Source: Spirochaetia bacterium
GTDB lineage: Bacteria > Spirochaetota > Spirochaetia > CAKZLE01
Assembly (NCBI GenBank): GCA_963677595.1
Contig: OY782041.1
Coordinates: forward strand, 4,161,223 to 4,225,222
Direction of reading: 5' to 3'
DNA: 64,000 bases
Below are positions 41,615 through 48,750 of this stretch, piece after piece. Position numbers and translations under genes: made by a program. The stretch's first letter is position 1. Each line of letters begins with the position of its first letter. A model generated the notes under the pieces. That model was not told where the DNA came from and searched no databases. It saw only the letters and a list, made by a program, of their open reading frames with translations.

Positions 41615-41802
41615 CTACCGGCACCTGAGACCCCAAAACAGACGGGATTACCTGGTGCCGGTAGTATACAGGGACGACTACAGGCCTTTCGTGAACGCCT
41701 TCATCGTGTAGTAGAGTTCATTCCATTTGACCGTCTGCTCGAACTGGCCGATCACGGTTGCCTCATCGATGGTGAGCATCTCCATGCCGCAGATCCGTGC
41801 AT
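41615..41802. repeat. Left 188-bp direct repeat (DR-L) of the araA 3' end plus downstream hairpin
   Basis: Aligns without indels to 48563-48750 at constant offset 6948; 14 mismatches by hand alignment. Confidence 0.9.
41678..41802 (-). pseudogene. araA: Orphan 3' fragment of an L-arabinose isomerase gene (last ~40 codons + stop)
   Basis: Translates (minus) to ..ARICGMEMLTIDEATVIGQFEQTVKWNELYYTMKAFTKGL*, 1 aa different from the intact araA C-terminus; no upstream coding continuation. Confidence 0.85.
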
Positions 41803-41949
41803 TTAAGGGAATGATAGTTTATCCGTCGGATATGTTCCCCTGAGAGTTGCTATAGTAGACCGTCATCTTGGATGTATGCCTAAAGAGCTCAGAATGTAAA
41901 TTTCTACAAATTAATAGGCAATTAAAACTTTTTCTATGTGGAAGTAGTA

Positions 41950-41978
41950 TTGATATTAATATTCTAGTATTATATAGC
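41950..41978 (+). promoter_or_regulatory. Possible promoter of the island operon
   Basis: TTGATA at 41950-41955 followed 15-17 nt later by TATATA/TATAGC; AT-rich context makes this weak. Confidence 0.2.
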
Positions 41979-42020
41979 ATATGAGTAGTGAGTATTATTC
42001 ATTTTATTAAGGAATAGTAT

Positions 42021-46294: not shown

Positions 46295-48492
46295 TCAATC
46301 CTTATGAGAAACTCGATAAGAATGTCCAGAAATGGATATATTCTCAAGGTTGGGCTGAATTACGTGATATACAAAAGCAAGCAATCATACCCATTTTAGA
46401 TGGAGACTGTGATGTCCTCATAAGTGCTTCAACTGCAGCTGGAAAAACAGAAGCCTTCTTCTTACCTGCTTGTACAGTAATAAAGGACGTTAAAGAAGGA
46501 TTTGGTATCTTATGTATTAGTCCATTAAAGGCTCTCATTAATGACCAATATCGCCGGTTATTAAGCCTTTGTGAAGAAACACAGATTGAACTAACTCCAT
46601 GGCATGGTGATGTATCTCAATCAAAGAAGAAACAGGCTAGGAAGCATCCTTCTGGCATATTGTTGATTACCCCGGAATCGCTCGAATCTCTATTAATAAA
46701 TAATCCAGAATGGGTTCATAGGGCATTTATGAATCTGAGATATATCCTAGTTGATGAGTTTCACGCTTTTATTGGTAGGGAAAGAGGACATCAACTTCTA
46801 TCTCAAATGAATAGGATCGAACATCTTCTTGGTAGGTATGATTCTCCCATACCTAGAATAGCTTTAAGTGCTACGTTAGGAGATCTGGAAGAAGTCCCGA
46901 ATTCATTACGTCCTAATAAGAGTCTTCCTTGTGTAATCATTACAAGCAATAAGAGTGTAACCACTATAAATCTCCAAGTAAAAGGATATGCAGATAAAAT
47001 TGATCATGATAATAAAGACCCATCTGAGGGAAAAACTGTTTGCTTAGATATCTATAGGTTTTGTAGAGGCCGATCCAATCTTGTTTTTGCGAATAGTCGA
47101 AAAAGAACAGAGTATCTTGCAGCTTCTTTAAAAGATCTATGTGAGGAGAATGTAGTACCTAATGAATTCTTTCCTCATCATGGTTCTTTGGCTAAATCTA
47201 TACGTGAAGATCTCGAATCTAGACTGCAAGAAAGTAGGCTTCCTACAACTGCTGTATGTACTATGACTCTTGAACTGGGAATTGATATAGGGAAAGTAGA
47301 ATCTGTGATTCAAGTAACAGCCCCACATGCTGTTTCAAGTTTACGGCAAAGAGTAGGAAGGTCAGGACGAAGGGATCAACCTGCAATCTTACGAATGCTG
47401 ATTTCTGAGAATGAACTAACAAATAAATCTTCCCTTAATGATTGTCTTCGGATTGAGTTATTACAGTCACTAGCTATGATCCGTTTGTTAATTTCCAATA
47501 AATGGTTTGAACCAGCTGATACCGAACAACTACACCTCTCAACACTTTTTCATCAAATTCTTTCAGTTATAGCCCAATGGGGAGGTGTAAGAGCTGATCA
47601 ATTATTAACGTTATTATGTAAAGAAGGTCCTTTCCACAAAATTTCAATTAGCCAATTTAAAGCATTACTTCAGCATATGGGGATGACAAATTTTATAACA
47701 CAGTTACCCTCTGGTGAACTAATAATCGATATTGAAGGAGAGAAGCTTGTTAACCATTACTCCTTTTATTCTGTGTTCCTTACTCCTGAAGAATACAGAA
47801 TAGTTACGCAGACAAAGACTCTTGGGACAATACCAGTAGATTCACTTCTATTACCTGGACAGCATATTATCTTTGGTGGCTGTCGATGGAGGGTTCAGGA
47901 AATTGATATTGAGAAAAAAGTGATCCGAGTTGAATCTACAAAGGGTGGATTACCTCCAAAATTTGGTGGTGCTGGTATATCTATTCATGATGTTGTTCGA
48001 CAAGAGATGTATCAAATTTATGCTCAAGGTGATTATCGAATACAAGTGGGTACTAATCATATTGATTTTATTGATGATACTGCAAAGCAGTTATTCTATG
48101 AGGGATTGGAAATATTTAATCAACATAATCTCAAGGAAAAACCTATTATCCACTTCAATGATAAAACATATGTTATTCCTTGGCTGGGGGATAAAGTAGT
48201 TAATACCATCTTTTCAATTCTCATTGAAAATGAATTTCAAGCTGACTTTTTTGCTGGAATTATTGAAATTTCAAACGCGACCGTCTCTGAAGTAGAGAAG
48301 TTTTTTGGGAACCTATTAAAAATGGGAATACCTAGTGGGGTGAGTTTGGCAGAAAAGGTTCCTGAAAAAGTTTTAGAGAAGTTTGATAAGTTTTTACCTG
48401 ATGCTTTATTGAATGAAGGATATGCTCAACATTGTTTTGATATAGAAGGGACAACAATGTTCATAAAAAAAATTGTTACCAACAACATGTAA
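46291..48492 (+). CDS. Superfamily-2 DExH helicase, Lhr-like (SngC-like)
   Basis: 733 aa; ATGA overlap with upstream stop; motif I ASTAAGKTEAF (K52), Ia SPLKALINDQ, II VDEFH, III SATLG, V TMTLELGIDIG, VI QRVGRSGRR; ~360-aa C-terminal region with FGGCRWRVQEIDIEKKVIRV resembling the Lhr-core WH/domain-4 region. Confidence 0.85.
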   Translation: MINPYEKLDKNVQKWIYSQGWAELRDIQKQAIIPILDGDCDVLISASTAAGKTEAFFLPACTVIKDVKEGFGILCISPLKALINDQYRRLLSLCEETQIELTPWHGDVSQSKKKQARKHPSGILLITPESLESLLINNPEWVHRAFMNLRYILVDEFHAFIGRERGHQLLSQMNRIEHLLGRYDSPIPRIALSATLGDLEEVPNSLRPNKSLPCVIITSNKSVTTINLQVKGYADKIDHDNKDPSEGKTVCLDIYRFCRGRSNLVFANSRKRTEYLAASLKDLCEENVVPNEFFPHHGSLAKSIREDLESRLQESRLPTTAVCTMTLELGIDIGKVESVIQVTAPHAVSSLRQRVGRSGRRDQPAILRMLISENELTNKSSLNDCLRIELLQSLAMIRLLISNKWFEPADTEQLHLSTLFHQILSVIAQWGGVRADQLLTLLCKEGPFHKISISQFKALLQHMGMTNFITQLPSGELIIDIEGEKLVNHYSFYSVFLTPEEYRIVTQTKTLGTIPVDSLLLPGQHIIFGGCRWRVQEIDIEKKVIRVESTKGGLPPKFGGAGISIHDVVRQEMYQIYAQGDYRIQVGTNHIDFIDDTAKQLFYEGLEIFNQHNLKEKPIIHFNDKTYVIPWLGDKVVNTIFSILIENEFQADFFAGIIEISNATVSEVEKFFGNLLKMGIPSGVSLAEKVPEKVLEKFDKFLPDALLNEGYAQHCFDIEGTTMFIKKIVTNNM

Positions 48493-48562
48493 TACAAATA
48501 CTTGCTACAATACGATCATGGGATTTAGAATAATTATCTTGGAGACAACTAATGGAACAAAT

Positions 48563-48612
48563 CTACCGGCACCAGTGACCCTACAACAGACAGGATCACC
48601 AGGTGCCGATAG
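48563..48612 (-). terminator. Hairpin immediately downstream of araA stop (duplicated at 41615-41664)
   Basis: ctaccggcacc-28 nt-ggtgccgatag (11-bp arms, one mismatch in this copy, perfect in left copy); long loop and no clear U-tail. Confidence 0.35.
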
Positions 48613-48750
48613 TATACAGGGACGACTACAGGCCTTTCGTGAACGCCTTCATCGTGTAGTAGAGTTCGTTCCATTTGACCGTCTGCTCGAACTGGCTGAT
48701 CACGGTAGCCTCATCGATGGTGAGCATCTCCATACCGCAGATCCTCGCAT
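48563..48750. repeat. Right 188-bp direct repeat (DR-R): functional araA 3' end plus hairpin
   Basis: See DR-L; contiguous with full-length araA. Confidence 0.9.

Follow-up and report, generated by a model that had tools for sequence, protein, structure and literature searches.

A complete Shango anti-phage operon between imperfect duplicates of the araA 3' end in a spirochaete, possibly inserted by a single homologous crossover

How does a complete defence operon come to lie between two copies of the end of a metabolic gene, when no gene for its mobility is found beside it? This question is raised by a stretch of 64,000 nucleotides (nt) from the genome of a Spirochaetia bacterium (GenBank assembly GCA_963677595.1, contig OY782041.1, positions 4,161,223 to 4,225,222 of the forward strand), hereafter called the window. 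An island that encodes the anti-phage system Shango is enclosed there by direct repeats of the 3' end of araA, the gene for L-arabinose isomerase (Table 1; all positions are those of the window). We regard it as about an even chance (probability roughly 0.5) that this island is a horizontally acquired, self-contained Shango operon, which was inserted by one homologous crossover within the 188-nt repeat.

The left copy (L) and the right copy (R) of the repeat align without gaps at a spacing of 6948 nt and are 93% identical, while all remaining repeats detected by the repeat search within 40-51 kb are at most 27 nt long. Each copy is made up of a 50-nt hairpin, a 13-nt spacer, and the araA stop codon with the last 40 codons and 2 further nt, and the identity breaks off abruptly at both ends. 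A base by base comparison of the 188 nt revealed 14 mismatches. The 63 non-coding nt contain eight of them, all located between 41626 and 41661, i.e., inside the hairpin, and the 125 coding nt contain six, namely five synonymous changes and one Ser/Gly exchange (AGC/GGC, 48697/41749). In these codons, a single-base change at random would have a 19.7% chance of being synonymous, and thus the probability to find at least five synonymous changes among six is P = 0.0015. The repeat contains runs of perfect identity of 58, 28, and 26 nt. R completes the intact araA gene, and L contains a displaced fragment, on which the source annotation places an open reading frame (ORF) of 35 amino acids (aa), P0134 (MEMLTIDEATVIGQFEQTVKWNELYYTMKAFTKGL; 41678-41785, minus strand). 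P0134 is almost certainly a pseudogene remnant and not a gene.

The DNA between the repeats comprises 6,760 nt and has a guanine plus cytosine (GC) content of 33-39%, compared to 55-60% in the flanks. It contains three co-oriented ORFs, and each junction between them is a 4-nt overlap. As judged from its sequence, the cargo is a complete sngA-sngB-sngC operon with all three sequence-defined features of Shango. This system has been defined in Pseudomonas and Escherichia coli and consists of a TerB-like protein, an ATPase, and a helicase (Millman et al., 2022, preprint 10.1101/2022.05.11.491447; Johnson et al., 2023, PMC10250203). The three genes, their order, the full-length profile matches, and the operon overlaps are the same here. 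SngA matches the Pfam families TerB_N (1.9e-43), TerB (2.3e-09), and TerB_C (3.5e-23). The match of SngB covers positions 4-427 of the 439 positions of the PADLOC profile and that of SngC positions 5-718 of 720, and the Walker A motif GEYGSGKT of the former and the DEFH motif of the latter are intact. The anti-phage activity of Shango has been shown for the Pseudomonas and E. coli homologues only (PMC10250203), and by homology the operon would be expected to protect its carrier strain against some phages. In Pseudomonas, too, Shango is variable cargo between conserved host genes (PMC10250203). Unlike the known representatives, the operon resides in a marine spirochaete, its SngC is at most 63% identical to others except for a phage-borne copy that is treated below, and its SngA is extended at the N-terminus by about 280 residues (residues 1-280, 42021-42860), which lie outside the PADLOC SngA profile. 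The extension has a start that resembles a signal peptide with a lipobox (…LFISAC), a low-complexity stretch rich in Ser and Asn, and, according to hydropathy, one transmembrane helix (about residues 214-236). This region is also found upstream in the phage-borne copy, where it is split by frameshifts.

Nothing that could have moved the operon was detected next to it. Pfam and PADLOC revealed no integrase or transposase domains between the repeats, only the domains of SngABC, and neither a tRNA gene nor terminal inverted repeats beyond chance expectation were found in the same interval. Likewise, no recombinase is present among the 19 window ORFs that were scanned against Pfam, which include the island, the flanking genes, and the lower-GC blocks. 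The island DNA that does not belong to the cassette totals only 132 + 66 = 198 nt. Its left part (41803-41934) has no similarity to the phage-borne cassette copy or to any of the 181 records compared, and its right part (48497-48562) has no match among these records. Elements that exploit Xer/dif (IMEX) integrate at the chromosomal dif site and are flanked by dif-like 28-bp repeats. The cumulative GC skew does not switch at the island position, and the target is the araA 3' end with its stem-loop and not a replication-terminus dif site, for which no explicit search was made. The preliminary description of this locus had reported repeats of 188 bp with 14 mismatches, no indels, and an offset of 6948, as well as the partition of the coding and non-coding differences and the abrupt end of identity, and all of this was reproduced exactly, base by base. 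Its statement that integrase, transposase, tRNA target, and inverted terminal repeats are lacking between the copies was borne out by the Pfam, PADLOC, tRNA, and repeat searches. It had thus correctly recognized an island without integrase, and its cargo, which had not been identified there, is the Shango operon.

If the island was inserted at araA, relatives should exist in which the site is empty. Exact look-ups of araA and SngB gave no match, and the collection of species-representative genomes yielded no empty site, the best araA found there, in metagenome-assembled genomes of Spirochaetia, being 69% identical at the protein level. A sister genome, L081, was reached through araA and the neighboring MMPL/RND transporter gene, the 90% protein clusters of which each include a member from a second contig of 4.36 Mb. 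Its locus has the order araD, araA, a spacer of 243 nt with one hairpin, and the MMPL/RND gene, with a single copy of the repeat. The flanks of window and L081 are 94.2% and 94.8% identical at the nucleotide level. AraA is 98.6% identical to its L081 counterpart P0133, and the MMPL/RND protein is 97.7% identical to P0136, the gene of which is 243 nt away from araA. Two public sequencing runs, X1 and X2, were examined as assembled contigs; the coverage of two further runs, X3 and X4, was too sparse to be informative. X1 contains the genome of the window at about 35x and a second strain at about 20x, which has exactly the L081 variants. The depth of the island unitig is 35.6x, without any variant form, compared to 32-34x for the window-specific flank unitigs and about 54x for the shared flanks. 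The island depth thus equals that of the window strain, and the deeper shared flanks reveal a co-resident sister strain without the island. The run X2, which stems from another study, contributed a contig of 294 nt that leads from the left flank via the hairpin and the araA end into the araA body and represents a third empty-site allele; its loose end AGTCCTCGAGCAT equals 48751-48763 of the window. The contigs of the runs contain a single joint that "goes back", and this reflects the alignment of the island unitig to both copies of the repeat.

One of the 14 mismatches needs a comment. The sole X1 contig that covers 41692-41728 has a G at 41720 and a depth of 68.7 (about 2 x 34). The A that the window has at this position (counterpart 48668) is absent from all X1 contigs, and the G form alone was seen. 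The left copy may therefore carry G at 41720 in the population, or the base of the assembly may be wrong, and the true number of differences between L and R would then be 13 instead of 14.

The divergence between the flanks of the window and L081 is mosaic and ranges from 0 to 30 differences per 200 nt. Therefore, homologous exchange is frequent among these lineages. Two blocks, 48698-48874 (177 nt) and 49563-49962, have zero differences from the co-resident sister strain, although the surrounding flanks differ by 5-8%, and they look like recent recombination tracts between strains that shared the sample.

The empty-site alleles enabled the history of the two repeat copies to be read. The haplotypes at the 14 informative positions were rebuilt by use of L081 and of the differences between the contigs. 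Among the single-copy functional araA alleles (L081, X2a, X2b), five of the six coding variants segregate, and these five are natural synonymous polymorphisms and not decay. The bias towards synonymous changes, together with the occurrence of the same states in relatives, excludes a purely mutational divergence of the two copies. R has states at six positions (41626, 41628, 41634, 41636, 41661, and 41749 in coordinates of the left copy) that are present in none of the three empty-site alleles, whereas L has only one private state (T at 41653). The foreign states of R start 11 nt from one island junction, and the difference between L and R at 41797-41798 is 4-5 nt away from the other junction. 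Because these states are so near to the junctions, and so few homologous bases remain on the island side, a later conversion from island-free alleles cannot explain them. The hairpin allele of foreign origin must therefore already have been joined to the island DNA when it arrived.

The same haplotypes bear on the place of the exchange. A chimera of the left part of L and the right part of R differs at only 4 nt from the L081 copy, compared to 8 nt for L, 9 nt for R, and 13 nt for the reciprocal chimera. With the orientation fixed by the topology, an exact permutation test yielded P = 0.045 for this minimum. It holds for a crossover anywhere in 41650-41758, a range that includes the longest perfect run (58 nt, 41662-41719), and under this solution the native-looking block runs continuously from the repeat into araA. 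The result fits a crossover within the repeat, in which the native site recombined with an incoming, island-linked araA-end fragment of about 7% divergence.

Taken together, the relatives support what the preliminary description had proposed about the origin of the island, and each of its predictions that could be examined held. The empty site that it had predicted, with the order RND gene, hairpin, araA and one repeat copy, exists in L081, in the minor strain of X1, and in the X2 contig. The two araA lineages are supported by the coding variants recovered in single-copy alleles of relatives and by the significant excess of synonymous changes, and the arrival of the island with an araA 3' fragment by the six R states that are absent from the empty-site alleles and reach within 11 nt of the junction. 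As a refinement, neither copy is simply host or foreign, but each appears to be chimeric via a crossover within the repeat.

Both hairpin copies fold strongly on the araA-sense strand (z = -2.7 and -4.1), and the R hairpin (CTACCGGCACCAGTGACCCTACAACAGACAGGATCACCAGGTGCCGATAG), which is located beside the intact araA, folds better than the L hairpin. The L allele resembles the empty-site relatives, with three differences from L081, and the R allele has eight. The single private state of L, T at 41653, weakens the stem, the minimum free energy being -29.7 kcal/mol compared to -32.8 to -33.9 kcal/mol in the other alleles. One stem pair is C-G in L and L081, U.G in X2a, and U-A in R, and this series indicates a structurally constrained element that evolves by compensation. 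Promoter and terminator scans were no better than chance, and the hairpin does not qualify as a canonical intrinsic terminator.

These observations can be combined in the following scenario. The incoming operon would already have been linked to a foreign allele of the hairpin and the last 41 codons of araA, derived from a relative that is about 7% diverged. The incoming 188-nt segment would have paired with the resident copy, and a single crossover, most likely in the 58-nt perfect run at 41662-41719, would have inserted the whole unit of 6.9 kb, either by a Campbell-type insertion of a circle or by an equivalent "ends-in" exchange with DNA of an island-bearing relative. L would then consist of the native left part and the incoming right part, which is now the orphan fragment, and R of the incoming hairpin and the native right part, which together complete an intact araA with a good stem-loop. 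The host homologous recombination system, which is clearly very active among these lineages, would be the most economical catalyst. By the reverse exchange between the repeats the island would be lost and a chimeric but functional araA restored, and such a clean deletion is plausible. The repeat, the identity of the cargo, the empty site, the allelic origin of the variants, and the lack of a recombinase in the island and among the scanned window ORFs are thus observed, whereas the position of the crossover, the dependence on RecA, and the form of the incoming DNA are what we infer.

Several points weigh against entry by a crossover within the repeat. The chimera test is only modestly significant, and the sister strain that serves as reference is itself about 5% diverged and mosaic. 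A donor lineage with the R-type hairpin was found in no run or collection searched, and therefore both the island-bearing relative and the 6.9-kb circle are hypothetical. A segment of 188 nt with 93% identity is a poor RecA substrate, despite its perfect runs. The scenario also leaves unexplained how the cassette was first joined to an araA fragment and why the repeat boundary coincides exactly with the hairpin base, which resembles the functional "gene-end replacement" of integrase-driven elements.

It is this last feature, the neat unit of gene end plus stem-loop, that is best accounted for by site-specific integration, the strongest alternative, which we nevertheless consider somewhat unlikely. 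The island would then be the remnant or a cargo-only satellite of an element with an attachment (att) site attP that mimics the araA 3' end and its terminator, and the tyrosine integrase would have been lost or would act in trans from elsewhere, as in a cis-mobilizable element (CIME). The anatomy matches, with an intact target gene, its last codons and the stem-loop beside the island, and the displaced 3' fragment at the far end. The differences between L and R are mostly synonymous, and at another Shango locus, L126, an integrase-less segment is likewise enclosed by a duplicated gene 3' end. However, there is neither an integrase gene nor a remnant of one, only the 132 + 66 nt are unaccounted for, and the scanned ORFs include no recombinase. 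A crossover at the inner end would share just four identical bases (GCAT), and L should be foreign if the crossover had occurred at the outer end, whereas the alleles show the opposite. Moreover, a second araA end occurs in none of 76 araA loci of other species, and the peptide of the araA end, searched as a codon-degenerate pattern of the last 22 codons, is present in no viral or metagenome contig. The survey of these 76 araA loci, a hotspot test proposed in the preliminary description, gave no sign that araA is a recurrent hotspot; the three matches obtained were unrelated short intergenic repeats.

The classical example of such an anatomy is the integration of e14 and phage 21 at icd of E. 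coli, which keeps icd intact and leaves a displaced C-terminal fragment, icdC, at the other end (PMC13626634). There, too, the two copies differ mainly by synonymous or conservative changes, and excision of e14 generates a chimeric functional icd (PMC13626634). The locus described here shares the 3' end of a metabolic gene as target, the intact gene, the direct repeats of the gene end, and the displaced fragment. However, e14 is SOS-inducible and encodes its own site-specific recombination system, whereas no recombinase was found in the island or the scanned window ORFs, and the crossover takes place at a defined core at one end there, whereas the alleles place the exchange inside the repeat, somewhere in 41650-41758. 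Small islands without mobility genes that are flanked by direct repeats from the target gene 3' end are a further likeness, namely to CIMEs and cargo-only tycheposons. The CIMEs of streptococci and the cargo-only tycheposons of Prochlorococcus are att-flanked islands of a known cognate integrase and usually reside beside or in tandem with an integrase-bearing element. For the araA island, the ORFs scanned in the 64 kb examined of the 4.3-Mb genome revealed no such partner or integrase, and its repeat is unusually long and imperfect. The core defence hotspot (cDHS) loci of P. aeruginosa (PMC10250203) are similar in that strain-variable defence cargo occupies a fixed position and is exchanged via flanking homology. 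However, an exchange via core genes creates no target duplication, whereas here a duplication of 188 nt brackets a single system.

An in-situ duplication is quite improbable. The 188 nt would have been duplicated upon insertion, e.g., by fork stalling at the hairpin and template switching, and the copies, identical at first, would have diverged later by gene conversion from other lineages. The base of a strong hairpin does form the outer repeat boundary, exchange between the lineages is frequent, and the block 48698-48874, which looks like a recent conversion tract, could explain four of the 14 differences. However, the foreign R states at 11 nt and the difference at 41797-41798 at 4-5 nt from the junctions leave almost no homology for conversion. 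These states must have come with the island DNA or from an island-bearing donor, and therefore this explanation collapses into the crossover within the repeat. Homology-facilitated illegitimate recombination, in which linear DNA would have been anchored one-sidedly at araA and joined illegitimately at 41802/41803, is hardly credible and was rejected: it is in line with the absence of a recombinase, with the start of homology at the junction 48562/48563, and with the other junction having no att-like features, but the joint would fall within the already paired region and have to duplicate it, whereas this process, known from Acinetobacter and pneumococcus, normally deletes recipient DNA, 41802/41803 has no microhomology, and the predicted wholly native L and wholly donor-derived R fit the alleles worse than a crossover within the repeat.

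Where could the operon have come from? Among 5.8 billion proteins, all matches to SngC are at most 63% identical, the best being from Gammaproteobacteria, with the exception of one member of its 90% cluster. This member, P0121, is 92% identical to SngC and belongs to a phage-borne copy of the operon, the SngA (P0129) and SngB (P0123) of which are 90% and 97% identical to the proteins of the island. This Janssand copy is found on contigs of LQAE, LQAF, LQAI, and LQAJ (L087-L091, L176-L180), whole-community Ion Torrent assemblies of continuous cultures that were inoculated with Wadden Sea intertidal sediment (PMC5763382). The homology to the window extends from 41935 to 48496 with 89.5-91.6% nucleotide identity and thus comprises the promoter region and the three genes; it stops 4 nt past the sngC stop codon. 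The phage-like element starts with a Type I restriction-modification system (hsdMSR), followed by an ImmA-type peptidase and a helix-turn-helix repressor, a PD-(D/E)XK protein, a single-stranded DNA-binding protein, DNA polymerase A, DUF7768, and then sngABC; VapE primase, VRR-NUC, SNF2 helicase, HNH, and the small terminase come after the operon. The element therefore carries two defence systems, the restriction-modification system beside the repressor module and Shango. Its backbone is only 63-67% identical to siphophages of Clostridia and Streptococcus. The enrichment cultures contained both Clostridiales and low-GC Spirochaetales bins, and either could host the element. An outward walk from it reached the restriction-modification genes, but neither an integrase nor a host gene. 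No cassette that is more than 67% identical is present in the INPHARED phage and PLSDB plasmid collections, and SngB scans of metagenome and viral contigs retrieved the Janssand copy as the sole close relative, with no others above 77% identity at the protein level. One can speculate that the 6.9-kb unit, an araA-end "address" plus Shango, is a recombinase-free mobile cassette, which would be released via the repeats as a circle with one repeat copy and, after transfer, re-targeted by this copy to araA of related lineages through host homologous recombination, and the operon of which would also shuttle between such chromosomal sites and phage-like elements of unrelated low-GC hosts; we regard this as unlikely.

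The locus offers a natural "before and after" pair, i.e., two co-resident sister strains, about 5% diverged, one with and one without a complete defence system. The junctions of the insertion, the site without it, and the history of the alleles can all be read base by base. A defence operon about 90% identical to that of a phage-like element is now chromosomal without any mobility gene, and it can be suggested, with modest confidence, that the duplicated gene end itself served as the recombination substrate. If gain and loss were confirmed to be recA-dependent, the locus would illustrate the way in which defence islands without integrase spread through a species complex and are lost again. It is, however, a single instance assembled from known components, i.e., Shango, gene-end duplication, and strain-variable islands, and it represents a fairly ordinary strain-variable defence island.

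Table 1. Positions of the repeat copies, the island, and the neighboring genes in the window.
Feature	Position	Strand	Remarks
MMPL/RND-superfamily transporter gene, left flanking host gene	39257..41434	-	Pfam MMPL, ACR_tran
Left repeat copy L	41615..41802	.	Repeat search and base by base comparison; without attached araA body
Hairpin of L	41615-41664	.	50 nt
Displaced araA 3' fragment in L	41678-41802	-	Stop codon + 40 codons + 2 nt
Island-private left end	41803..41934	.	132 nt, 36% GC, non-coding
Upstream (promoter) region of sngA	41935..42020	+	Kept in the phage-borne copy; blastn homology to L087 and L090 starts at about 41935-41938
sngA, 986-aa TerB-domain protein	42021..44981	+	PADLOC SngA 4.7e-82, residues 280-985
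sngB, 438-aa BrxC/BrxD-type P-loop ATPase	44978..46294	+	PADLOC SngB 2e-183; Pfam BrxC_BrxD 3e-151
sngC, 733-aa DEAD/DEAH helicase	46291..48492	+	PADLOC SngC 8e-266; Pfam DEAD, Helicase_C
Island-private right end	48497..48562	.	66 nt, 30% GC
Right repeat copy R	48563..48750	.	Hairpin 48563-48612 + spacer + functional araA 3' end
araA, L-arabinose isomerase, intact, 505 aa	48626..50143	-	Pfam AraA_N, AraA_central, Arabinose_Iso_C
araD-like aldolase gene, after araA	50171-50866		Pfam
LacI-type regulator gene, after the araD-like gene	50880-51947		Pfam

Repeats of differing nature bracket six of 84 Shango loci. A general rule of gene-end repeats around Shango cassettes is unsupported by this heterogeneous set, in which only L126 resembles the araA case. 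On this metagenome contig a Shango segment of 7.6 kb without integrase is enclosed by two copies of the terminal 84 nt of an AAA_33 kinase-like gene (6391-6474 and 14078-14161, 79% identity); the distal copy is decayed, with 12 non-synonymous versus four synonymous codon changes. At L124, Shango is part of a 20-kb island bracketed by a tRNA 3' half, a classical att site. Copies of a group II intron surround Shango at L105, and at L168 the bracketing repeat is a piece from within abiEi, located next to an AbiE toxin-antitoxin pair, between der and a BamC-like gene. The repeat of L159 is 140 nt long, contains a terminator, and spans 14 kb around Shango, and that of L116 comprises 97 nt with 77% identity around Shango and ORFs of unknown function.

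Further differences between the window and L081 exist outside of the island. About 5 kb to its left, the window has 559 nt (35865-36423) at a second strain-variable spot, at which L081 has about 2.3 kb and contains additional ORFs (493 and 228 aa) that lack Pfam matches, and another indel of about 0.8 kb is located near 34700. The sole other lower-GC block of the window (17861-25909, 40-47%) encodes two sulfatases, an ABC sugar transporter with two permeases and a binding protein, and a ROK regulator, and it is possibly another acquired block. It lies beside a complete rRNA operon (5S 26167-26280, 23S 26361-29348, tRNA-Ala 29559-29632, 16S 29833-31375), and an orphan 5S rRNA gene is present about 11.5 kb away from this operon, at 14512-14625.

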